Shown in pieces: positions 1,421-14,030 of a DNA stretch of 64,000 bases; position 1 is the stretch's first letter; each line of letters begins with the position of its first letter. The DNA is taken from the NCBI GenBank assembly GCA_963707025.1, contig CAVPOM010000008.1, forward strand, positions 1 to 64,000, given 5' to 3'. Source of the DNA: an uncultured Verrucomicrobiae bacterium (lineage in GTDB: Bacteria; Verrucomicrobiota; Verrucomicrobiia; Limisphaerales; Palsa-1400). The notes beneath the pieces were generated by a model, which searched no databases, was not told the origin of the DNA, and saw nothing but the letters and a program-made list of their open reading frames with translations. The translations under genes were made by a program, and so were the position numbers.

Positions 1421-2895
1421 TCGATTATCAAACCTATTGCCAGATTCGGCAGTTGTTCACCGAAAAGAAGCTGGGCCTGCGGCAGATCGCCCGCGAACTC
1501 AAACTGGGTTTGAACACCGTCCGCAAATGGGCCGGGCGGGAGAGTTTTAAGCCCGCCGCCATCCCTCAGCGCCCCAGCAAACTTGATCCGTTCAAGGGCA
1601 ACATCGTCCGCCTGTTGGAACAACATGCTTACTCGGCCCAGCAGATTTTCCAGCAACTCAAGGAGCGGGGCTTCCAGGGACGCTACACCATCCTCAAGGA
1701 GTTCGTGCGCCAGGTGCGCCCCAAACCGCGGCCGGCTTTCCTGACGCTCCACTTTGAACCCGGAGAGTGCGCCCAAGTGGACTGGGGATGCGCCGGTTCG
1801 GTCCCGGTGGGATCCACCCAGCGCCGCCTGTCCTTTTTTATCATGGTGCTGGCCTTCAGCCGCAAAATGTATCTGGAGTTCACGCTGGCCGAAACGATGG
1901 AGCATTTTCTGGCCTGCCACCAGCACGCCCTGGAATACTTCGGTGGGGTGGTGTGCCAGGTTTGGGTCGATAACTGCAAGGTCGCCGTCTTGAGCCGGGT
2001 CGGCACCTCGATCACGTTCAACCCGCGTTACTTGGATTTTGCCAACCATCACGGTTTTCAAATCAGAGCCTGTGGCCCATCTCAGCCCCAGGAAAAAGGG
2101 CGCGTCGAGAATGGCGTGGGATATGTCAAAAAGAACTTCCTCAACGGTCTGCAACTCTCGGATTTTCAAGCCGTTAATCCGGCGGCGCGCTATTGGTTGG
2201 ACACGGTGGCCAATATCCGGGTTCACGGTCAGACCCAAAAAACGCCCCAGGAACTCTTCACCCAGGAAAACCTCAAGCCCCTCCATCCGCTGCCTTATGA
2301 GGCGGCCGTCGTAGGCCCCGTCCGGGTCAACAGTCAGTTCCGCATCATCGTTGATGGCAACCGTTATTCGGTCCCCTGCCAGTATGCGTCGAGCCAGCTC
2401 ACCTTGAAACGGTTCGCCGACCGGCTCCTGGTTTATGACCAGGAGAAGCTGGTGGCCGAACATGTGCGCCGTTACGACCGCAACCAGGACTACGAGTTGC
2501 CCGACCATGTGGCGCCCTTGCTCTTGCACCGTAAAAAGGCACGCGAGCAAAAGCTCTACCTGCGCTTTTTGGCCCTGTGCCCCAAGGCCGACGATTACTA
2601 TCAGCAACTGGAACAGCGGCGTCTCAATCCCAAACATCACGTCCAGAAGATCGTCGCCTTGAGCGAGCTTTATGGCGTCGAAGCGGTCGCTCGCGCCATG
2701 GAAGACGCCTTCACCTATCAGGCTTTTTCCTGCGAATACATCGCCAACCTTTTACAGCAACGCCAGCATCCGCCCGAGGAACCCGGCGCGTTGCACCTGA
2801 CTCGGCAACAAGACCTGCTGGAGTTGGATCTGCCCGCGCCAGACCTCTCTCTTTACGACTCCAAGAACCAACCCGACTCTCCACCCAACCCATGA
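1417..2895 (+). CDS. istA: IS21 family transposase IstA
   Basis: N-terminal HTH; DDE motifs AQVDWG, VDN, KGRVE; C-terminal DGNRYSVP. Confidence 0.95.
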   Translation: MIDYQTYCQIRQLFTEKKLGLRQIARELKLGLNTVRKWAGRESFKPAAIPQRPSKLDPFKGNIVRLLEQHAYSAQQIFQQLKERGFQGRYTILKEFVRQVRPKPRPAFLTLHFEPGECAQVDWGCAGSVPVGSTQRRLSFFIMVLAFSRKMYLEFTLAETMEHFLACHQHALEYFGGVVCQVWVDNCKVAVLSRVGTSITFNPRYLDFANHHGFQIRACGPSQPQEKGRVENGVGYVKKNFLNGLQLSDFQAVNPAARYWLDTVANIRVHGQTQKTPQELFTQENLKPLHPLPYEAAVVGPVRVNSQFRIIVDGNRYSVPCQYASSQLTLKRFADRLLVYDQEKLVAEHVRRYDRNQDYELPDHVAPLLLHRKKAREQKLYLRFLALCPKADDYYQQLEQRRLNPKHHVQKIVALSELYGVEAVARAMEDAFTYQAFSCEYIANLLQQRQHPPEEPGALHLTRQQDLLELDLPAPDLSLYDSKNQPDSPPNP

Positions 2896-3634
2896 ACGAC
2901 GATCAACTTGTGACGCATTTGTTTTACCTCAAACTCTCCTATTTTCAGGAGCACCACCAAGCCCTGGCCCAAGAGGCGGCGGAGAAAAACTGGACGCAAC
3001 TGGACTTTCTAAGCCGCCTGGCCGAAGGCGAAGCCCTCCGGCGGAAGGACCGGGCGACCCAGCGCCGCATCCAGGCGGCGCGCTTTCCGGTCATTAAAAC
3101 CCTCGAACAGTTCAACTGGACTTGGCCCAAGAAAATCAATCGAACCCAAGTGCAAAATCTCTTCCGCCTCTCCTTCCTCAAGGCCAAGGCCAATGTCATT
3201 TTCATGGGCGGCGCCGGCCTCGGAAAGAGCCACTTGGCGACCGCGCTGGCCTATGAGGGCTGTCTGGCCGGCCACACGGTGCTGTTCACCACCGCCATCA
3301 ACATCGTCAACACTCTGGCGGCGGCCCAATCCACCCACCGCCTCAAAGCCGAACTCAAGAAATACATGACCCCAGCATAATTTGTATTGACGAGCTTGGA
3401 TATTTGCCGATCAATAAAACCGGCGCCGATTTGCTCTTCCAAGTCTTCAGCCAGCGTTACGAGACCGGTTCGACCATCGTCACGACCAACCAGCCCTATA
3501 AAAACTGGCCCAAAATCTTCAACAACGACAGCACCCTGACCAGCGCCGTGCTGGACCGGCTCCTGCACCACGCCGAAACGGTGATCGTGGAAGGCCGGAG
3601 TTACCGTATGAAGGATCAGATCGAAACACCCTAA
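2892..3634 (+). pseudogene. istB: IS21 helper ATPase IstB, frameshifted
   Basis: Walker A GGAGLGKS. Stop at 3378-3380, with Walker B (CIDELGYLP) and LDRLLHH in another frame. One extra C in the C run at about 3370 restores the frame. Confidence 0.9.
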
Positions 3635-3644
3635 CATCCCGCAC

Positions 3645-3959
3645 TCACGGCTCTTTCGGTGGGCTCATTTGCTTCCGCGCCGCCGGGATCGTCGCTTCGT
3701 AGTCCGCCAAATACTTCTCAATCGAGTGCGCCGTGCCAGTGACTCGAAGCTCGGCGTTCACTCGATCAATTAAAATGGGCGCGTTCCCTGCCAGCCTATC
3801 CCGCGTCTCGCCAGAGGCCAAGTATTTACGACTCTGGTAAAAGAAAACCCACCCGTAGGGTCGTTTGAGCGTGTCCTCTTTGACCACAATAGCCTGATCT
3901 CCCGTGACGATCCTAATCCAGGTCTCGGCCAACTCCAACGCTTGAGCAAACGTGAGCAT
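3645..3959 (-). CDS. YrhB-domain / Imm35-like immunity protein (IS cargo)
   Basis: YGWVFFYQSRKYL...LAGNAPILIDR...TGTAHSIE motif. Confidence 0.75.
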   Translation of the reverse strand: MLTFAQALELAETWIRIVTGDQAIVVKEDTLKRPYGWVFFYQSRKYLASGETRDRLAGNAPILIDRVNAELRVTGTAHSIEKYLADYEATIPAARKQMSPPKEP

Positions 3960-3990
3960 ATAATGTTACCCTTTTAATCATGCAACAACC

Positions 3991-4040
3991 GATCCGTTGT
4001 CAACCGCCCGTTTTGCATCCCGTCCTCGCCGCCGCCCACA
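3991..4040 (-). repeat. IS21 right inverted repeat
   Basis: Ends ...gccgcccaCA, followed by the TSD TCCGGGG. Confidence 0.88.
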
Positions 4041-4998
4041 TCCGGGGTACACTTTCAATACTCCCGTGGCCGCATGACGCTTCGAGCCAGTGGCGGTTCC
4101 ACGCCGCTAAATTTGATTACATCATCCTGATCCAAGGCACACTGCGCCGTTCCAGTGCATGGGAAGATTTGACCGAACACAACAAACCAGAGGTTTCGCT
4201 GCGGGACGCCATAGACTTGTTGAACCGTTACTTCAATGAAGCCATAGCACTGACTCGTGAAAAAGCCTCGTCCGAATATTCAGATTTTGCCGGGCGAACC
4301 ATTGTCAGGGTGGACTGGGCCGCGATTTGGGAACGCTGGAAGAAAGTTAGCACCACTGGTCAACCACGGATGGCTCGGGTCGTTGAAATTGCTCAGGACC
4401 ATCTGGTTTGCATCCGTGACGTGTGCGAGCGCCCACGGCGTATGTTGGTACGCCAGCGCGAACAAGTGCCCGTGGGCCGTGTCCAGGAACTCGACTCCAC
4501 CTGTTTGCGAGACCTGATCCAGCGCCCAGGCCGCACTGTCCTAGAGAAGGCTGGAGCCCGTCAACAAATCGTGGCCATCACTCGCCGCGAAACAGTGGAT
4601 ACGGCCGAGAACCGAGTCATTCGGGATTTTATCGGTCTCTGCCAACATCGTGCGAGTGCATACGTCCGCGAGAACAGTTCAGCCCAAAACCATCCAAGAG
4701 TGAAAATTGTGGCGGACTTGAGATACAATTGTGAACGACTCGAAAAGTGGTCGGCCATATCTGGAGCCAGCCGCATGGTTGGCATCCCGCGTCCCAACTA
4801 CGTGCTCCAAAAAGACCATCGCTATCATCCGTTGTGGGTACAGTATGAGAAGCTACGGAAAGAGGAAACCGCTGTGGACAATATCTGGAAATGGGGGCGA
4901 AGGCTCTGGGCGGAGTTTGTCCGCAGCGTGGTCATTGCGTTTTTAGCAAGTGCCGAAGGCAGAAGCTCTGGCTGGCAACCGGATGGCGAGTTGGTCGC

Positions 4999-5109
4999 GT
5001 ACCACAAGACGCGGCCGGGATGCTGGAGTTGAGTGTTGCGCTTCGAGCAGTAATAAGCGCCCTCTATCCCCAAGTGCAGTTCGTCCTTTAGCCCAAAGAG
5101 CAGTTCGCT
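4999..5109 (-). pseudogene. Short inverted fragment of a GNAT/PIN/PUA(ASCH)-type protein
   Basis: SELLFGLKDELHLGIEGAYYCS...PGRVLWY resembles the PUA-like region of such proteins. Confidence 0.35.
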
Positions 5110-5110
5110 C

Positions 5111-5470
5111 CCCAAGCCTGAGTTCCGACAAGACGGCGGGCAGTTCGTGATGACGCTATGGCGGGACTGGCTGACGGAGGCGCGATTGGATGAATTGGGA
5201 TTGAACGAGCGCCAGCGCAAGGCTGTGATCGAAGTCAAACGAACCAAGACCATCACCAACGCCGAGTATCAAAAGATTACTGGCGCCACCAAGAAGACGG
5301 CGTCGCGGGACTTGGAAGATTTAACACGCAAGCACGTCCTCAAGAAAATCGGTAAGACCGGCCGCGGTACTTTTTACACCATTGCCAATAATGGGGACAA
5401 AAAGGGGACAAAGGGGACATTATTACGTGCGCCAGCCAAAGGGGACAGAAAGGAGACAAACAGGACATGA
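5111..5470 (+). pseudogene. C-terminal fragment of RecG-like/AlbA ATP-binding transcriptional regulator (wHTH)
   Basis: PEFRQDGGQFVMTLWR...LNERQ...ITNAEYQ...TASRDLEDL...GKTGRGTFY; no N-terminus. Confidence 0.7.
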
Positions 5471-5534
5471 ATCCGAAGCCGAAGGAAATGCCTCGGAAAT
5501 GCCTCAATTGCCTCACACCGGAATCAACTGCTTT

Positions 5535-5852
5535 ATGAGCAACGCCACCATTAAACCTTGGGTCGAATCGGTCATCCTGCACCCGGATGTTTTGTCACCA
5601 AATTTTTCAGAGGACATTTTCGCCCTCGATTTGGGGCCACTAGCCGACGGCAACAAAAATGTTCCCGCCGTCTATCGTGACCCGGAGCAATTCTTCCGCG
5701 CCTCTTATCTGACGAGTGGTTTGAATTCGCTGTTGCAAGACGTGCTCTCGCGCCTGTCCGGCGGCGCGGGCAATCGGGTATTGAAACTGGTCACGCCTTT
5801 TGGCGGCGGTAAATCGCACACGCTCGCTGCGGTTTATCACGCCGCGCGCAAC
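5535..5852 (+). pseudogene. N-terminal fragment of DUF499 ATPase (BREX-related defence)
   Basis: KPW...HPDVL...FALDL...YRDPEQFFRASYLT...TPFGGGKSHTL; truncated just after Walker A. Confidence 0.8.
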
Positions 5853-5857
5853 AGTCC

Positions 5858-6184
5858 ATGCGCCCGGAACTATTCGCCCGTATCACGGAAAAACTGGTCT
5901 TCAATCGTCTGTCGTACGACATCCAGCTTGAAATCGCGAAATTGCTGCTCGACAACGAAATCGAATTTTTACGGGACAAGGGCCATGAGCTAACGCCCGA
6001 CAAAAATGTGCTCCCATTTCTGGTTCAACGAGGCTTCCATCCACGGCTTGGCGCCCGCCCGATGCGCGATGCTATTGAACGACTGGTTGGTGAAGCTGTT
6101 GTCGATAACATCTCATTTGGGAAAAAGGCTGCGGGGCTTCTGCTACCGGACTCTACCAAAGCAGCTTTGACAATTAGATCGTAA
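5858..6184 (+). pseudogene. C-terminal D2-small fragment of ClpA/ClpB-like AAA+ protein
   Basis: RPELFARITEKLVFNRL...GFHPRLGARPMRDAIER. Confidence 0.75.
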
Positions 6185-6230
6185 CCCTGTACCACAACGA
6201 CACGATGGTTGGATTCCATTCAGCCGATTA

Positions 6231-7342
6231 TTGAGTTCCGCATAAATAATGGATATATTTCCTGAACTGTGGCATAGTGGGGTTCGTGAGACCCGAAGGC
6301 ACTGCTCGACAACTACAGGCGCGGCGCACCAGGGCGGTGGCGCTTTTGAAAGACGGCCACTCCTATCAGGCGGTGGCCCGAATGGTCCAGTCTTCGTTAA
6401 GCTCGGTGGTCCGCTGGATGCAATCCTTCCGGCGCAAGGGCAAGTCTGGCTTGAAGCCTCGGCCCACGCCCGGCCGTCCGCCGGAAATGAAGGCTCGCCA
6501 GCAGAAAGAGTTGATCGTTCTGCTAAAGGCGGGAGCGCGGGCCGCCGGTTACTCCACCGAAATGTGGACGGCCAGGCGCGTGGCCGAGCAAATCCGCCGA
6601 CACTGGGGAATCCAGTATCATCCGGGGCATGTGTGGAAAGTGCTGGTGGGGTTGGGCTGGAGTTGCCAGAAACCCGAACGGCGGGCCCTGCAACGCGACG
6701 AGAGAAAAATCCGGCAGTGGAAGCAGACCCAATGGCCGCGTATAAAAAAAAGCCCGCGCGTCGCGGGCGCATCTGGTCTTCCTGGATGAGAGCGGGTTTT
6801 TGCTTATTCCACCGGTGCAGCGCACATGGGCCCCCAAAGGCAAAACCCCCGTCTTGCGGCACAGCTACCGGCGGGATCGCCTGTCGGTCATCGGAGGATT
6901 GACCATGTCGCCGAAGCGCCACCGTTTGGGACTGTATTTCCAGATTTATCCCTGGAACGTGACGGCCGTCGAATTGGTGCAGTATTTTACCGAGTTGCTG
7001 CGGCATCTGCGGGGAAAGGTGATCGTGCTGCTGGATGGCTGGGCCGTCCACAAGGACAGAAAAGTGGCCGCGTTTTGCCGCCGCCACCGCCGGTTGCATT
7101 TGGAAAGGTTTCCCGCCTACGCGCCCGAACTGAACCCGGAAGAATACGTCTGGACACAAAGCAAACGAGCCGTCAGCAACACCAGTCCGGAAAACCGCGA
7201 CGCCTTGCTGGACCTGGTGGTCAACGCGCTCTGCGATGTCCAGCAGTCGCAAACCCTTTTGGGCGCCTGTCTGGCCCAAGCCGCTAAATACGGACTGACG
7301 TGGAATGACTAATAGCATATCCATTATTTATGCGGAACTCAA
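6231..7342 (+). mobile_element. IS630 family element
   Basis: Perfect 26-bp IRs (TTGAGTTCCGCATAAATAATGGATAT) and TA TSD at 6229-6230 and 7343-7344. Confidence 0.93.
6277..7312 (+). CDS. IS630 transposase, two ORFs joined at an A8 slippery site (6744-6751)
   Basis: HTH ORF 6277-6789; DDE frame with FLDESG, LLDGW, YAPELNPEE. Confidence 0.88.
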
Positions 7343-7508
7343 TAATTGATCAAACGCTTGCGTAAAAGTGCAAGCAGGCTATGACCTTTCAGCGAGAAAA
7401 TAAATGATCAACACAATCTTTTTCAGCGTCTGATTTCGACTCTGCCGCCACGTCTCATTTTGTGCGCAGTATGCAGTTTACACGTCAACAGATGACATAA
7501 TTCATTTA

Positions 7509-8960
7509 TCACGTAGTGAAGTTTTGAGTCAGTGTGTTGCCGCAACATGAACTCAAATTCCCATAGGTCACGTTCGACTTCTCGTCCGTGATAAACATAT
7601 AATTGACATTCGGACACGCTCCTCCGGTCAGGTCTGATTGAATGCCTTGATTACACAATTGAGGTCCGTTGTTCACGGTGTAAGTGATAGTTCCCGCTCC
7701 CTTGGAAAAATTCGCCGTCGCGCCATTGTCCGACCCCACGACATTAACCTGGAACCCACGTATCGGGAGTTGAAACGCCGCAGGCACCTGCATGGTTTGG
7801 TTGGCATGGAGCAGCCCGCTCCCGCCGCCAAGGATAAAGTCTGCGCTGGTAATATTCCCGCTGGCGTTGGAATTGAGGGCGATAGTAAATATCTGTCCGG
7901 CGGAAATATTATTATTAAAGAGGTTGTTAAACTGGTATGTATAATTCGATTCCTGAAAGGTCTGGTTTGAACTCGCATCCCAGTATTGAATAGAAGTCCA
8001 TACGAAACCCCAACTAATGCCGAATACGTACTGCATCCAAATGGTAGGATTGGCGCCCGCGGGTGTAGGATCGTAAGCGTTGAGCTGGATAGAGAAGCCG
8101 GACGAATCCATTTCCGTTGTCACCTGCACAGAAGCAGTCAGCCCTACAATATTTTGGCAACCGGGTGCGAAGAGCATATAATTGGAACTGCCCGTCAGTT
8201 GACTGAGCGCGGGGATACAAGCGCCATTGCAACAGGAACTTCCGGCCGGGCAAGCATTGCCGCAACTTCCGCAATTATTCGGGTCTGTTTGAAAGCTACT
8301 AACGCAGCTTCCATTGCGACAGCAGCCAGTGGGGCAGACGTTCCCGCACCGTCCGCAATTACTTGGGTCTGTCTGATAATTCGGCGAAACACAAGCTCCC
8401 GCGTGACAGCAACCGGTGGAACAGACGTTCCCGCATTTCCCACAATTGTTTGGGTCGGTCTGGTAATTCGGCGAAACACAAGTTCCTGCGTGACAGCAGC
8501 CGGTGGAGCATTTATGGCCGCAACTCCCGCAATTATTGGGGTCTGTTTGCGAATTAGAGCACGTACCGTTGCAGTAAGAGAAACCCGAGGTGAAGCAAAC
8601 GCACTCGCCATTGACGCACTGGGCAACCGGCGTGCAGGCAGGATTACATAATTTTACGCATTTACCCAACTCACAAACAGAGCCCGTTGGGCATCCGCCA
8701 GGGCACGGCGGCGGGGGGACGATGCAGTTCCCGCCCACCAGCACTGCCGGAGGCTTGCACACCAGCGACGGGACACAGTGCCCATTATCACAAGTTTCTC
8801 CTGTCCCGCATTGACATTCTGATCCATTAAGACACTCAGGACCGCAGGACGTTTGCGCCTCGACGCCGCCTCCCGATTTGAATGAGCCGCCGGAAGACGC
8901 GCGGTAGATGTTCCTCGACACGTAGAGCGAGGCCTCAGCGGAAAACGTCGGTAAATTCAT
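7509..8960 (-). CDS. Cys-rich protein: leader (MNLPTFSAEASLY), EGF-like/STIG1-like repeats, C-terminal beta-rich domain
   Basis: 483-aa ORF, four QTDP(N/S)NCGxCG repeats, no hydrophobic signal peptide. Confidence 0.85.
   Translation of the reverse strand: MNLPTFSAEASLYVSRNIYRASSGGSFKSGGGVEAQTSCGPECLNGSECQCGTGETCDNGHCVPSLVCKPPAVLVGGNCIVPPPPCPGGCPTGSVCELGKCVKLCNPACTPVAQCVNGECVCFTSGFSYCNGTCSNSQTDPNNCGSCGHKCSTGCCHAGTCVSPNYQTDPNNCGKCGNVCSTGCCHAGACVSPNYQTDPSNCGRCGNVCPTGCCRNGSCVSSFQTDPNNCGSCGNACPAGSSCCNGACIPALSQLTGSSNYMLFAPGCQNIVGLTASVQVTTEMDSSGFSIQLNAYDPTPAGANPTIWMQYVFGISWGFVWTSIQYWDASSNQTFQESNYTYQFNNLFNNNISAGQIFTIALNSNASGNITSADFILGGGSGLLHANQTMQVPAAFQLPIRGFQVNVVGSDNGATANFSKGAGTITYTVNNGPQLCNQGIQSDLTGGACPNVNYMFITDEKSNVTYGNLSSCCGNTLTQNFTT
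8220..8560 (-). repeat. Intragenic tandem repeats of about 87 bp (29 aa, STIG1-like)
   Basis: QTDP codons at about 8281, 8365, 8452 and 8539. Confidence 0.85.
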
Positions 8961-8979
8961 AATAACCTTTTTTCAGGCA

Positions 8980-9996
8980 TCACCGGTCATAATAAGGCTG
9001 CATTTTTGTGACGAGGAATGGATACGGTTCCGTGACATCCACACGAACGAAATGCTTCGAAACGACGTCGGTTTTGCGATTCGTGAATTCGAAGATGACA
9101 TCCAGGATCTTCCGGCTGCCGCTGAGCCGGGACGGGCGCGCGCTCACGGATGTCCAGGATTCCCCCTTGGAGTGCGCCTCGTGAACCGCCTCGTAAACAC
9201 GAGGATACCGCAAAACGAGATAGTTCAGAGCGCGATGATCATCCTGGTTCCCGAAATTGTCGGTCATTTGCATGATTCGATCGAGGACCTCCTCCGTGGA
9301 AGCTTTAAACTCATCCGCATGGACGTCCTTGGGCTTAACCAAAGCTTCCACCAATGATTCCCGAGGAAAGGAATACATGTGGCTGAGGTGAAGCATCGGT
9401 ATCGTCAGCCCGTTGCAGAAGTCGGCGGGCGCGATGGGGCCTTTCATGCCGATGGCCACGTCCAGGTCGTTGTGCTGCGGCCGCGGGCGTTGCGTCTCGA
9501 TCAGCGAGCCGAGCTGGAACGGATCCCGCATCATGACGATGTAGGCGTCGAGGCCGTTGATGGTCATCACCCAGCAAACCTCGCTGGCAAGATAGCGGTT
9601 TTGCGGATCTGAGAACACTTTGTAAAAGGCTTCTTTGTCGGTGAGTCCCTTTCCCTCGGAGCGGCCCATTGCTTGGGCGAATTCCTTTTCGATGGAAGGC
9701 TTCGGGAAACGCGCCTCGAATCTGCCGATCGCGTAAATGTAGCGGCCGGAAGGCGGGCCGTCAGCGGCGGTGGTTGGCCGGCCCAGCAATACCGCCGGCG
9801 CTGCTTCGGCACCAGACGCCGCCGTTGTCCCGCAGGTGGCGCACGCCTGAGGAACGATGGCGGGTTGCGCAAGGCCGGTAAAGGGCGCCTGGGCCTCTGG
9901 CGCGTTCACGGCATTTCCTCGCGGCGTGCTGTCATGTTCCTCATTTACTGACGCTGAGGCCTTGTTTTGCTCTTCGATTGTTTCGGTGTTTTGCAT
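8980..9996 (-). CDS. Stand-alone PatA/PatG C-terminal domain protein (PatG_D/PatG_C-like)
   Basis: YIYAIGR...SIEKEFAQ...NRYLA...CNGL...DNFGNQDDHRALNYL...FVRVDVTEPYPFLVTKMQPYYDR. Confidence 0.9.
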   Translation of the reverse strand: MQNTETIEEQNKASASVNEEHDSTPRGNAVNAPEAQAPFTGLAQPAIVPQACATCGTTAASGAEAAPAVLLGRPTTAADGPPSGRYIYAIGRFEARFPKPSIEKEFAQAMGRSEGKGLTDKEAFYKVFSDPQNRYLASEVCWVMTINGLDAYIVMMRDPFQLGSLIETQRPRPQHNDLDVAIGMKGPIAPADFCNGLTIPMLHLSHMYSFPRESLVEALVKPKDVHADEFKASTEEVLDRIMQMTDNFGNQDDHRALNYLVLRYPRVYEAVHEAHSKGESWTSVSARPSRLSGSRKILDVIFEFTNRKTDVVSKHFVRVDVTEPYPFLVTKMQPYYDR

Positions 9997-10025
9997 ATAT
10001 GTCTCAGTTTGTAAGAATGATCAGG

Positions 10026-10238
10026 TTAACGTCTTGGTGAAAAAGTCATCCAATTGTTCAGAGTCGTAGCGCGCCTTTCGCAGCCGCTGCAAGGTTTTAT
10101 GCCCATCATGTAAGTCAGCTTTTTGATCGCGTCGCCCAGGCCAATTTCTTCGTCTAGAATGAAGCCGGGAAGCCGCACCTCGTGAGGTCGTGGGGCGATT
10201 TCCTGGTTATGGGGTGTTTCCTGGCTCGATTTTTTCAT
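10026..10238 (-). CDS. Small conserved CxxC protein
   Basis: VRLPGFI.DEEIGLGDAIK...GIKPCSGCERRA..LN; ATGA overlap with the protease gene. Confidence 0.75.
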   Translation of the reverse strand: MKKSSQETPHNQEIAPRPHEVRLPGFILDEEIGLGDAIKKLTYMMGIKPCSGCERRATTLNNWMTFSPRR

Positions 10239-11116
10239 AAATTCCCATGAACTGCATGAGGTTGGGCCAGCATTTGATGCGATGCCCAGGCGTCCAGGAG
10301 TGGCGGGACAATGGTCCGATTTTGCCGTACGCTCGAACTGCAAACGGCTGATCTCACCTCAGCCGCACTGGCCGCTGGGGATAACGACCAGAGGAGCGCG
10401 ATGGTGCCCGTGACGATGGCCGCGGCCAGACTCGAACCCGTCAGTTTCCTAGTCTGTTTGCCGGGGCCAAAGCTTGCGATATTCACGCCTGGCGCCGTCA
10501 AACCCCGGTTTCCAATCGAGTTGCCGAGATTGGACTGGCTCATCAGGCTTCCCTTCTCGTCGCAGGCCACGACTGGAATTACCCACGGATGACGGGTGAT
10601 GGCCGTGCTGCCGATCATGCCTTGATTTCCGGCCGCTGCCACACAGATTACCCCATGCCTCGCGGCATAATTCAAAGCCTCTTCCAGTTTCTGGCCGCCG
10701 GATGACGTTTGGCGAGTGAGTCCCACGCTCAAATTTAGCAGGTTCGCGCCGGCATCAACCGTGACGGTAATTGCGTCCGCCAGATTTTCGGGGGTGGCAC
10801 TGGGCACATTATCATTCTGTGCGCCGCTCTCTTCGGAGAAGATGGGATAGACCAGCAACGTGCAGCCGGGACAAATAGAGGGCGCAGCCGAACCTCGCTT
10901 TCCATGCAAGATTCCCGCGACAAACGTGCCATGATTGCAGGCGTTGCTGCCCACCCTCGAGCATGCGCCTCTGCCTGCCACCTCACGGATATTCGAAATA
11001 TCCAGACCTTCGTGTTCCATATCAACCGGGCCATCAATTAGCCCTATCTTTATCTCGGGCCTGCCAGAAGATAATTTCATTAAAGCTGGCAGCCTGATAA
11101 AATCGAACGTGCTCAC
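10235..11116 (-). CDS. S8 subtilisin-like protease, PatA/PatG protease-domain type
   Basis: Triad motifs IGLIDGP, NHGTFVAG, TGSSLAAA; oxyanion AAAGN; no signal peptide or propeptide. Confidence 0.92.
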   Translation of the reverse strand: MSTFDFIRLPALMKLSSGRPEIKIGLIDGPVDMEHEGLDISNIREVAGRGACSRVGSNACNHGTFVAGILHGKRGSAAPSICPGCTLLVYPIFSEESGAQNDNVPSATPENLADAITVTVDAGANLLNLSVGLTRQTSSGGQKLEEALNYAARHGVICVAAAGNQGMIGSTAITRHPWVIPVVACDEKGSLMSQSNLGNSIGNRGLTAPGVNIASFGPGKQTRKLTGSSLAAAIVTGTIALLWSLSPAASAAEVRSAVCSSSVRQNRTIVPPLLDAWASHQMLAQPHAVHGNL

Positions 11117-11150: not shown

Positions 11151-11600
11151 CCCGGAATTTCCCATTTGATTTCTCGCCCACGAACAGCGTGGGCCTTTTT
11201 CGTGATTTTCCGCCTGCTCCACAGATTTGCAAGTCTTTTTTCGAGTCCGCTCCCCGCTTTTCTCTGGCGGAGGGGGTGTTCCGATGCTTTTTTGCCTCCA
11301 ATGCCCTTTTTCTCCAGGATGAGAAGACACCTCTTCCAAGGTTTCCTTTGTTTTCATGCGCGTCCTCTCACTTTTCCTTCATCCGGTTGCCGCTGCGGGC
11401 AGTCTCAGCCGCCCAATTCCTTCCAGAATCGCCCGGAACAACTCTCGCGGCACCGCCACCTCCGCCATCTGGAAGACGATCTTCCGGGAATGGCGCACGA
11501 CCTTCGCCCCGATCTTGATCAGTTTCTCCCGCAACGTCGTCAACGACCAGTGACGAACCGCTCTGGGCAGCACCGCCTGCCGCAGGAAGTTGCCCAGGTT
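11151..11600 (-). mobile_element. IS1380 family remnant (transposase 3' end and right end)
   Basis: NLGNFLRQAVLPRAVRHWSLTTLREKLIKIGAKVVRH; end motif atgggaaattccgg at about 11151-11165. Confidence 0.8.
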
Positions 11601-12030: not shown

Positions 12031-13053
12031 TTATTTCCGGTTGAATTTCCGTTCCCATTCCTGAAGGGTGTCGAGCACGGCTTCAAATTCAGGCGGTTCA
12101 ACAAAGAACATTTGCCGCATTTTAGCATAATCCTCCCGCAATGCCGCAATGCGTTGAGTTGGCGGGTATAAGTGCAAGGTTCCCTTGGCCGCTTCCTCAT
12201 ATCTCGCCCAGGATGATCTGAAAAACAGGCTTTTGTGTTTGGCAACCCGGTCCAGGAGGTCAAGCCGCTGGACGGCTTCCGGGGCGACGCCTTTGCGAAT
12301 CAACTCGCAAAAATCATAGTAATGGCGCGAAAACCGTTCGGGGATCGCCTTCTCTGCCGGACGATGGAACTCCGCGTGGAGAATGGTGGCCTTTTCCCAG
12401 AATGTACGCTCCGCTGAAAGGACCTTGATGGCGCAACTCGGCTCCCGGAATCCCTTCGGAAACTGCTCGGCAACATACGATGTGATGGTTTTTGTCTCGC
12501 ACGGCCAATGGTCCGACCGCGCCCCCATTTCAATTTTCACCGCCCGGCGAATGTAGCGGGATGTTTCCTGGGGGAAAGTCGTTGGATATTCAAACAACAA
12601 AGTCTGTTGATCGGGGTCATCGTTATCCTGGCGGAGCGCCCATTGCTGACCAAGGCCAATTCTCGCCCTGATGGCGGATTCCAAGCTGGGCTGGAGTTCG
12701 CCTGAGATTTTCTGCTGGCAGGAGGTGATAAGGGCCTGAATGCGTCGTTGTTTTTCCTTGTTGCTGGTGCCGGCCTCCGGCTCGTTGGCCCCTCCAAATC
12801 CGAGAAATCCCCGGTCAATCGAAATGTCAATATCCTCGGAAAACCGCTCAATGATTTTGAACACCTTGGACAACGAAGTGCCGCCTTTGAATATCAGATG
12901 CCCGCCAATGGTCGGCAACCGGAACAATTCCTGCAAAGTCCAGCAAACCCAAAAGTCCTTCTCAACGATTTGGGCCTGGATGTTCCGCGCGGTGGCTGTG
13001 CCCTCGAAATAGATCCTCCGCTCCTCCGGTTTCAACTTTGCAAAATCATCCAT
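12031..13053 (-). CDS. abiEii: AbiEii/AbiGii nucleotidyltransferase toxin
   Basis: VEKDFW, FKGGTSLSK, RFSEDID, ERTFWEK, RHYYD. Confidence 0.92.
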   Translation of the reverse strand: MDDFAKLKPEERRIYFEGTATARNIQAQIVEKDFWVCWTLQELFRLPTIGGHLIFKGGTSLSKVFKIIERFSEDIDISIDRGFLGFGGANEPEAGTSNKEKQRRIQALITSCQQKISGELQPSLESAIRARIGLGQQWALRQDNDDPDQQTLLFEYPTTFPQETSRYIRRAVKIEMGARSDHWPCETKTITSYVAEQFPKGFREPSCAIKVLSAERTFWEKATILHAEFHRPAEKAIPERFSRHYYDFCELIRKGVAPEAVQRLDLLDRVAKHKSLFFRSSWARYEEAAKGTLHLYPPTQRIAALREDYAKMRQMFFVEPPEFEAVLDTLQEWERKFNRK

Positions 13054-13056
13054 GTA

Positions 13057-13668
13057 TCAAGTTCCAGCGGCCAGACGCCGCATGATGCCGGCAATCCAAG
13101 CCGGCGCAAAGGCAGCGTCTGCCAATAATCGTTTGCGGTCGGTGGGAGCCAGTCTGAAATCAAGCCGCTTAATGGTGGCATCGTTGACATGAGCCTTGCC
13201 AAGATAACGCAGCGCGTGGATTACCAAACCACTGATGCTTCCTGCCGTCGCCATGAGGCGTGGAGAAGTTTGTTTCAGTGATATATCGAGCTTTCCAAGC
13301 CGGACACGCTTGCTGCGTCCATCCGTCAAAAAGACCACTTTGGCCGGAACCTGATCTGACAAACCCAGCAGATTGGCGGCATACGCGCCGGTGGGCTGCA
13401 ATCGTGTCCCGGTTTTGCCCGCCAGAGCCTTGGCCACGTTGTCAATTTCGGGTGCGGTCAATCCAACAATCGGGTGTTGGTGGGGGACATCATACAAACC
13501 GCGCGCCACCCGGCGGACAGTTTTTGCCGTCGCCATTCGTGAAAGCGCCTTGTCCACGGCAGGCCGAGAGCCAAGATCAAGAAAGTCGGAAGCCGAGAAA
13601 ACCCAGCCGTGCCCGCGCTTTTTAATCCGCGCAAGCATCGCTTGTTCTATTGGATTTGACACGTTCAT
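13057..13668 (-). CDS. abiEi: DUF6088 / AbiEi antitoxin
   Basis: FSASDFLDLGSRPAVDKALSR...RRVARGLY...GAYAANLLGLSDQVP; directly upstream of the toxin. Confidence 0.88.
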   Translation of the reverse strand: MNVSNPIEQAMLARIKKRGHGWVFSASDFLDLGSRPAVDKALSRMATAKTVRRVARGLYDVPHQHPIVGLTAPEIDNVAKALAGKTGTRLQPTGAYAANLLGLSDQVPAKVVFLTDGRSKRVRLGKLDISLKQTSPRLMATAGSISGLVIHALRYLGKAHVNDATIKRLDFRLAPTDRKRLLADAAFAPAWIAGIMRRLAAGT

Positions 13669-13679
13669 TTGATATCCAT

Positions 13680-13709
13680 TGTCAGAAATATGTATATGAT
13701 TATCTGACA
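13680..13709. promoter_or_regulatory. Inverted repeat TGTCAGA-N16-TCTGACA, probable AbiEi operator
   Basis: Perfect 7-bp arms in AT-rich DNA 11 bp upstream of the antitoxin start. Confidence 0.6.
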
Positions 13710-14030
13710 TAAAGCCAGCCCTTTTTGGTTCCACGAACGAAAAAAAGAGGGCAACCCTTTCCGATCACCCAATCGCCATTGCGAGAAGTTGAAATACATA
13801 TCCGCGTTTTGGCCCCGAAAATCAAGCCCTGTTTAGTAATTGTTGGGAGTGACCTGCAAAGCTGCTTAAAAAATCACCGCAGCCATGCGATGGCGGGGGA
13901 GGGAAGAGATTCCCAACCCGCTGGACGCTCTTTCTGCGCCAAGGGACACCCCCCGAGTTGGTTTCGCGAGAAGGGGAATGCTGGCCTGAACAAAGGCCGC
14001 CGCCGCGAGATTGCTGGCAAACCAAAAGGC

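Follow-up and report, generated by a model that had tools for sequence, protein, structure and literature searches.

A split PatA-related protease cassette predicted to mature leader-tagged, disulfide-rich mini-proteins

Introduction

Does the domain of unknown function (DUF) shared by the cyanobactin proteins PatA and PatG have a role of its own, outside macrocyclisation? The question is raised by a four-gene operon in an uncultured Verrucomicrobiae bacterium (assembly GCA_963707025.1), located on a stretch of 64,000 nucleotides of contig CAVPOM010000008.1 (positions 1 to 64,000, forward strand) that we call the window. The operon encodes a subtilase of family S8, a 70-residue CxxC protein, a PatG DUF standing alone and a large Cys-rich protein. 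The structure of the DUF was solved in 2014 with no function assigned (PMC4259220), and a paper from 2025 still terms it a domain of unknown function (PMC12639078). Our analysis leads us to propose, with a probability of roughly 0.6, that the operon is one copy of a cassette, split and related to PatA, for the maturation of disulfide-rich mini-proteins, and of some larger proteins, that carry a leader tag. No description of such a cassette was found in literature searches that included the Pfam identifiers and leader terms, searches that missed most subscription papers; in the passages and 12 supplementary files of decRiPPter that were searched, TIGR03895, the family of S8-DUF fusions, is listed as a domain only (PMC7794033).

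Organization of the cassette

The four open reading frames (ORFs) within window positions 7509-11116 are intact, lie on the minus strand and are located where the initial annotation had placed them. Their tight linkage, also claimed there, is borne out by gaps of 29 nt between the CxxC and DUF genes and 19 nt between the DUF and cargo genes, and by the overlap between the S8 and CxxC genes. The genes and the parts of the cargo are the following.

10235..11116, minus strand: PatA-type S8 protease, 293 aa, GTG start (PF00082, E 1e-25)
10026..10238, minus strand: CxxC accessory protein, 70 aa, its ATG overlapping the S8 stop codon as ATGA
8980..9996, minus strand: stand-alone PatG/PatA DUF (PatG_D and PatG_C), 338 aa (PF18047, E 2e-25; PF18065, E 3e-29)
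7509..8960, minus strand: cargo precursor, 483 aa with 48 Cys (Stig1-like repeats, E 2e-9), the sole leader-bearing gene detected in the genome
8853..8960, minus strand: leader, cargo residues 1-36, with front motif at residues 3-12, Tyr19 and a predicted cut after V-E-A-Q (leader alignment A2)
8217..8846, minus strand: Cys-rich stalk, cargo residues 39-248, 43 Cys (PF04885; NF041328 at E 3e-8, below its cut-off)
8242-8561, minus strand: Stig1/MXAN_6577-like tandem repeats of 84-87 nt within the stalk (repeat search)
7512..8213, minus strand: cargo C-terminal domain, residues 250-483, without a named family (homologue search)

Homologues of the DUF are numerous (5741 among 8000 scored candidates of 185-592 aa). 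The loci gathered comprise three from a genome collection scanned with one sequence, those on the 80 best-scoring metagenome stretches out of 518 that were confirmed, six plasmid or chromid records and 12 from a sample of the genus Streptomyces, in which 13 of 201 genomes matched. Linkage counts leave out the window's own locus (L004), a distant DUF-only locus (L089) and a locus whose DUF is split by a stop codon (L062), and alignments A2-A5 leave out near-duplicate and plasmid loci. Among the 45 loci with at least 1.5 kb of upstream sequence, 41 encode the S8 protease and 44 the CxxC protein; a locus usually has a single cassette S8. The gene order of the window copy is repeated in dozens of loci, while most Streptomyces loci follow the order CxxC gene, DUF gene, precursors, S8 gene. 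Look-ups in the Atlas showed clusters without a name, and no others, at the top of the hit lists.

A conserved leader precedes hypervariable cores

The downstream genes of the cassette begin with a common leader of about 36 residues, P-x-F-x-A-E-x-S-L ... V-x-P-Q/A. Alignment A2 comprises 73 leaders picked for the presence of both motifs. Positions P4 and F6 do not vary in it, and A8, E/D9, S11, L12 and Y19 come next in conservation. A plain pattern search returned 107 matches across 89 loci, and a hidden Markov model (HMM) built from these matches detected 195 leader genes at E < 0.02, up to seven per locus and on the strand of the DUF gene in 191 of 194 cases. Where at least 300 bp of downstream sequence were available, a leader gene was present in 69 of 70 loci, in 59 of them within 300 bp of the DUF stop codon.

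Enrichment of the leader beside such operons had been set beforehand as a test by the initial annotation, and enrichment is what was found. The whole 7-Mb host genome (88% complete) yields one HMM match (E 6e-7; next best 0.24), in the gene adjoining the DUF gene, and in the Streptomyces sample leader matches occurred at the locus in 5 of the 13 genomes with a DUF as against a single weak one (E 0.003) in the 188 without. As these two controls agree, the specificity of the leader holds outside the set on which the HMM was trained. Leader-like genes stand beside the DUF in all 11 full-length Streptomyces loci, in ten by HMM (best E from 1e-10 to 0.04) and in the last by eye. In three plasmids searched whole, every leader match fell at the cassette; a fourth plasmid, lacking the S8 gene, gave none. 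The leader profile matches 5304 clusters at 50% identity, and NCBIfam models matched none of 35 representative precursors.

The leaders do not resemble export signals. That of the window cargo is non-hydrophobic, as first described (best 12-residue Kyte-Doolittle mean 0.79); in the family only 4 of 145 leaders exceed a value of 1.8 and none of 148 carries a twin-arginine motif. Signals of the Sec and Tat types were consequently rejected.

What follows the leader is highly variable: 142 cores fall into 115 BLAST families, in agreement with the earlier expectation that the downstream genes would differ while sharing a leader. Precursors have a median length of 87 aa and only 6 of 148 exceed 200 aa. 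The 483-aa window cargo is thus a length outlier, and the idea that the operon processes a large protein rather than a short precursor, which holds for the window copy, does not extend to a family whose arrays contain up to seven short precursors. A conserved leader and a hypervariable core linked to a dedicated protease would place the system among ribosomally made peptides that are modified after translation (RiPPs) in the broad sense.

Cores contain 12.5% Cys, have mixed net charge and in 55 of 142 cases carry twin C-x3-C motifs. Among 138 cores with at least two Cys, leaving aside precursors cut by a contig end, the Cys count is even in 122 (p 2e-21), as compared with 50-60% even counts for seven control residues. 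The same bias appears in the best 150 hits of the leader profile (128 of 134 even), two of which overlap the locus set. Such even counts suggest that the cores are disulfide-bonded, as had been predicted for the products of the operon. Not all cargo is Cys-rich: leader-bearing frames of about 210 aa with 0-4 Cys occur at L076:1236-1871 and L030:5192-5824, some of which may be frameshifted or chimeric.

Pieces of the 3' end of the DUF gene were found apart from the main DUF gene in 14 cases, two of which lie at contig edges and are possibly whole second genes. Eleven of the pieces have a leader gene no more than 150 bp away, and most of these are 75-96% identical to the DUF end of their own locus. 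Since such remnants directly precede internal precursor genes (L009:8348-8458 and 8897-8995; L017:2365-2445; L030:1782-2030; L032:2290-2463; L036:3184-3351; L039:8365-8739; L048:3316-3471; L067:5395-5538; L070:591-701), their arrangement suggests that precursor arrays grow via recombination or duplication at the DUF-leader junction.

The Stig1-like or MXAN_6577-like repeats (PF04885, NF041328) that form the stalk of the window cargo stand here behind a cassette leader, and a stalk of this type also occurs in two other large cargos. The C-terminal domain gave seven matches including itself. Of its six homologues, P0395 carries the leader as well; the others have ricin-B, hemopexin, FG-GAP or unnamed partners. 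No sequence match to this domain was found in the PDB, and weak lectin matches were ascribed to the fused partner domains. A Q-x-N, a Gln and a T-x-E are invariant in six sequences, with spacing similar to that of thermopsin, whose HMM (PF05317) was not matched. The conserved residues of thermopsin (A5) are Gln109, Asn111, Gln128 and Glu305 (PMC3842238), and the Gln/Asn/Gln...Glu pattern of the cargo domain may recall them, which we take as a lead only.

A PatA-type protease and its predicted cut site

The cassette S8 protease has neither signal peptide nor pro-domain. Its catalytic residues D28, H62 and S229 and oxyanion residue N164 are invariant in an alignment of 38 cassette S8s, and Cys 52, 60, 82 and 85 are conserved. 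Triad, oxyanion Asn and the lack of signal and pro-peptide are the features of a PatA-type subtilase domain. Its closest solved relatives are the cyanobactin proteases of the N-terminal type, 4h6v, 3zxx and 4h6w (E about 1e-28), followed by PatG chains (1e-15); the alignment starts at residue 17 with 4h6v and only at query residue 61 with the PatG chains. In PatG, a capping insertion is situated between the catalytic Asp and His. This insertion is lacking in the cassette S8s, in which the Asp-His spacing is 33-36 in 37 of 38 rows (those with both motifs found), as short as in PatA-type 4h6v.

A motif V/I/L-x-P-Q/A/S occurs in 100 of 148 unselected non-redundant precursors compared with 4 of 89 background windows, and nearly always ends at positions 32-41. 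We infer that the leader is cleaved after V-x-P-Q/A, and after V-E-A-Q in the window copy. PatA itself cuts after G(L/V)E(A/P)S between leader and core (PMC10885120), a site that sits where the cassette motif sits; the cassette S8 is predicted to cut likewise after a short motif.

The resemblance to the PatA/PagA proteases (TIGR03895; 4h6v, 3zxx, 4h6w, 3zxy) extends to the signal-less subtilase and to the same DUF fold. By contrast, the S8 and the DUF are encoded by separate genes, the leader differs, a CxxC protein is added and the cores are long and Cys-paired. Scores against TIGR03895 (116 bits for the S8, 25 for the DUF) are far under the cut-off of 421 bits. One locus (L063:180-1985) encodes a natural S8-DUF fusion of 602 aa, without a CxxC gene and followed by a normal precursor, which is a PatA-like architecture within the cassette family. 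Cyanobactin clusters carry two proteases, A and G (PMC4663559), whereas the host genome contains a single PatG_C domain and a single cassette-type S8. In PatE-type precursors the short core is framed by RSII on one side and a C-terminal follower on the other; a follower-type [AS]YD was present in 2 of 148 cassette precursors, and cassette cores extend to the stop codon. The heterocyclase YcaO (PF02624), optional in cyanobactin clusters, was not found in the 88%-complete host genome, in line with the initial annotation, and no prenyltransferase accompanies the cassette. As for the cyanobactin accessory genes B and C, the 70-aa CxxC protein has no NCBIfam match even at E 0.1. Lacking a G protease, a follower, a short core and a heterocyclase, the cassette was rejected as a cyanobactin cluster; by analogy, its work would correspond to that half of a cyanobactin pathway in which the leader is removed.

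The stand-alone DUF as predicted leader receptor

Membership of the cassette DUF in the PatG DUF family is supported by HMM (PF18047 and PF18065 above cut-off) and by fold (4uvq: Foldseek 4e-11; VIA Z 16.0, rmsd 4.1, 233 aligned). Beyond 4uvq, only matches at the level of the OB fold were obtained (Z <= 7.4; N-terminal half OB-like at Z 6-7), which we do not count as functional evidence. Unlike 4uvq, the protein stands alone and has an N-terminal arm. In the model the first 83 residues are of low confidence; they contain, at residues ~49-56 (window 9826-9850), a V-x-P-Q followed by a CxxC, the former identical to the predicted cut motif of the cargo. P-Q/A precedes the CxxC in 42 of 75 DUFs, and the S8 protease may trim this arm as well.

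A co-fold of protease, DUF, CxxC protein and leader had been proposed as a check. We co-folded the window S8, DUF residues 40-338 and the leader in three runs, with the proteins of the window copy as first sequences of the alignments. The score was 0.67, as against 0.09 for the best control, in which the DUF was replaced. Of 157 solved complexes 116 attain this mark, as do 2 of 215 mismatched pairs, counts that are no more than roughly valid for our own alignments and three chains. The runs share at least 78% of contacts and the leader has a confidence (pLDDT) of at least 48. Contacts with the least predicted error join leader residues 3-12 to DUF residues Y208, F210, Y259, R263, Y264, F327, L328, V329 and K331, each of them 97-100% conserved across the family; Y208, F210, R263, Y264, F327, L328 and K331 make up the predicted pocket. 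Mean conservation is 0.92 for the 13 DUF residues whose contacts have the least error (p 0.007 versus the rest). In the best run the leader lies in the interface up to residue 38, and the S8 side of the interface includes residues 28, 62, 161-164 and 225-232, i.e., the active site. The model supports the stand-alone DUF as a candidate leader receptor that would act via a conserved pocket, and with it the suggested role for an orphan PatG DUF outside macrocyclisation.

RiPP recognition elements (RRE/PqqD-like) recognise a motif conserved among leaders and bring the precursor to its enzyme. The role proposed here is similar, in a different fold, as the DUF strongly matches 4uvq only. On alignment with 4uvq, two residues of the predicted pocket, R263 and Y264, have different counterparts and a Trp takes the place of F210, for which reason the cyanobacterial DUF might have another ligand, or none.

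Very distant DUF genes occur outside the cassette. The Photobacterium GJ3 record (L089:7800-13209) contains two in tandem, followed by an 834-aa protein of no recognized family and a phage tail-collar protein, and no cassette-type S8, CxxC protein or leader was found there. The Vibrio aquimaris record (L102) is possibly a further case. No DUF was found in viral contigs.

The CxxC protein

The structure model of the 70-aa protein (pLDDT 77) consists of a strand with an L-P-G-F motif and a helical hairpin carrying C50-x-x-C53. Residues L23, P24, F26, G35, C50, C53 and R56 are invariant in 59 copies. The protein belongs to no Pfam or NCBIfam family, and no solved structure matched the fold above Z 2.3. 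The hairpin has likenesses among small uncharacterised proteins of phages, namely phrog_32048 (E 1e-6) and weak structural matches in BFVD (E >= 0.027). L-P-x-F is present in all 59 proteins and a longer leader-like pattern in 49. As the leader-like motif is accompanied by no cut motif, the CxxC protein could be a permanent ligand of the same DUF pocket.

A second lead comes from longer homologues. In 67 of the 120 listed (of 196), the CxxC module lies inside ResA/MauD-like proteins of thioredoxin fold. In each of the six fusions inspected there is a hydrophobic helix at the N-terminus and the module is flanked by thioredoxin domains; matches of such fusions to NF002854 and TIGR02661 were all under the family cut-offs. 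A large family (P0145-P0240, ~420 aa) combines this helix with two or three thioredoxin domains between which the cassette CxxC module is inserted; fusions with an FHA domain also occur. These fusions point to thiol chemistry for the CxxC protein, which in the cassette, unlike ResA, TlpA and MauD-type oxidoreductases, has no thioredoxin domain. Methylamine dehydrogenase has six disulfides, the formation of which MauD aids (bioRxiv 10.64898/2026.03.05.709764). No thioredoxin-CxxC fusion was found in the host genome or beside the loci examined. The CxxC protein had no match in 350 further genomes of the phylum of genome G251, and one strong and one weak match in 300 further genomes of the phylum of genome G253.

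Proposed mechanism and alternative explanations

In the mechanism that we propose, the DUF pocket would bind the front motif of the leader, so as to present V-x-P-Q/A, some 25 residues further on, to the PatA-type S8 protease, whose cut would free a linear core. Judging from the even Cys counts, the core would then be closed by disulfides, without heterocyclase, macrocyclase or other tailoring enzyme. In what is the weakest of these steps, the CxxC protein might dock on a similar pocket via L-P-G-F and act as a thiol-disulfide relay or adaptor. The cargo of the window copy would be an unusually large substrate, a Cys-rich stalk bearing a beta-rich domain.

Several observations weigh against this mechanism. 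PatG-DUF showed no binding to PatE' by nuclear magnetic resonance (Mann et al., PMC4259220). In the co-fold, contacts with the S8 active site come from the best of the three runs alone (146 contacts versus 56 and 45), the fold of the leader is uncertain, and a model built from alignments favours conserved surfaces, so that pocket conservation is partly dependent on the method. The strict motif V-x-P-Q/A/S is missing from 48 of 148 precursors, and leader counts include some near-duplicate metagenome loci and were made with an HMM for which these loci were also the training set. Neither the all-against-all clustering of 1909 locus ORFs nor a Pfam search of 87 ORFs flanking 37 loci (taken as the longest frames, so that some are probably in the wrong frame) revealed a thioredoxin, Dsb protein or exporter that recurs next to the cassette. 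Finally, the window copy itself has drifted: its DUF is altered in 25 of 136 near-invariant columns (others median 3, maximum 20) and is the most drifted of 118, its S8 is altered in 8 of 95 (others median 2, maximum 10), three of them beside the catalytic Ser, and its V-E-A-Q lacks the Pro of the family motif.

The window copy may thus be a divergent subfamily or a decaying copy. That it is a relic which no longer processes its cargo, an explanation compatible with the proposed function of the family, would fit its GTG start, its absence from 60 relatives, the lack of any promoter-like site above chance upstream of the operon and the end of an insertion sequence (IS) of family IS1380 about 35 nt before the S8 start, which may have displaced a promoter. 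We nevertheless consider it unlikely, as the four frames are open, the triad, CxxC motifs and predicted pocket residues are kept, a 58%-identical DUF (P0003) is consistent with a divergent subfamily, and the passing co-fold had the proteins of this very copy as first sequences. Slightly less likely, in our opinion, is that the leader serves chiefly as a tag for export, which the protease removes, and the DUF as a secretion chaperone to unlinked host machinery, with disulfides forming outside the cytoplasm via host Dsb or VKOR. Leaders that are neither hydrophobic nor twin-arginine on cores that appear disulfide-bonded speak for such a route, the ricin-B, hemopexin and FG-GAP partners of the cargo C-terminal domain and the hydrophobic helix of the thioredoxin fusions agree with it, the host has VKOR (DsbB was not found), and distant DUF-only genes stand near a tail-collar gene in Photobacterium. 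Yet no transporter family recurs in the clustered or flank ORFs, the only C39 domain of the host is on another contig, and the cassette occurs in both Streptomyces and rhizobia, whose envelopes differ.

The two remaining explanations change the chemistry of the core. High Cys content, the conserved CxxC motifs of all three machinery proteins (S8, CxxC protein and DUF) and the binding of Zn by 4uvq (PMC4259220) could indicate metal- or Fe-S-binding, metallothionein-like peptides and metal-handling sites in the machinery. We regard this as very unlikely: the commonest Cys count in the locus set is 6 (32 cases; 24 with 4 and 27 with 8) and odd counts are rare, which pairing explains better, extreme diversification would not be expected for metal storage, and no metal genes recur among the flank ORFs. 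About as improbable is a reduced cyanobactin pathway whose protease would macrocyclise or transamidate the core. The homology of S8 and DUF to PatA/PatG and the existence of heterocycle-free, disulfide-bearing cyanobactins (piricyclamides, PMC4663559) speak for it; the single protease with PatA-like short Asp-His spacing, the near absence of the follower, the low TIGR03895 score of the S8 and cores of up to hundreds of residues, compared with 6-20 in cyanobactins (PMC4663559), speak against it.

The split maturation cassette remains our preferred reading, and a broader form of it can be sketched tentatively, one that we consider rather unlikely as a whole. A self-sufficient three-gene machine, composed of the PatG DUF as a new leader-recognition fold, a PatA-type protease and a CxxC mini-protein, would oxidatively fold and trim disulfide-rich mini-proteins and larger proteins, unrelated to one another and numbering in the thousands, and pass them on for release with neither Sec/Tat signal nor dedicated transporter, as a microbial counterpart of the disulfide-peptide libraries of animals and plants, diversified by recombination at the DUF-leader junction, cyanobactin PatA being a fused offshoot.

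Distribution, flanking elements and neighbouring genes

The cassette is widespread yet patchy. It is carried, among others, by Sinorhizobium, Mesorhizobium, Streptomyces and a Terriglobia bin, and was not found in the 60 host relatives or in 250 genomes of the host phylum. This distribution and the plasmid copies suggest mobility, a part of the initial annotation that stands. It rests on these rather than on the flanking IS elements from which it had been drawn.

6227..7346, plus strand: IS630-family element, flank downstream of the operon and outside the cassette (HTH_33 and DDE_3; 30-nt perfect inverted repeats)
11152..11600 (11600 approximate), minus strand: IS1380-family remnant, flank, ending ~35 nt ahead of the S8 start (C-terminal piece of PF13701 at 11379-11573)

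The IS630 element is single-copy in its own genome and the IS1380 remnant has related ends elsewhere in it (76-92% identity). A composite transposon was rejected, the two elements being of different families and the former single-copy. Counts of promoters and terminators did not rise above chance.

Upstream of the operon lies a DUF6088 and AbiEii pair resembling a type IV toxin-antitoxin system (window 12031-13734). Downstream, window 2577-6184 consists of island debris with IstB (IS21), a DUF2357 piece, a ClpB D2-small fragment truncated by the IS630 element and an orphan Imm35 gene (3645-3959).

In the ORF clustering, only the cassette genes and their shadow frames recurred widely, together with two large proteins of about 1000 and 1330-1420 aa beside the cassette in four Streptomyces loci (L088, L095, L096, L097). 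The L088 copies have no Pfam match, and this locus has lost the S8 and any recognisable leader. The flank ORFs contained no YcaO and, at one locus, a single radical SAM protein; no tailoring enzyme recurs in either set.

Significance

With the cassette, the PatA/PatG DUF gains a concrete candidate ligand and a predicted pocket in which residues can be named as targets for mutation. If three small genes do fold and trim cargo of ~25 to ~450 residues, disulfide peptides could be made with their help, and they would exemplify a way to disulfides or export for which the usual signals do not account. The at least 5304 leader-marked clusters would constitute a large unexplored library of microbial disulfide-rich mini-proteins, of which those sampled are mostly small, with even Cys counts and no NCBIfam match.

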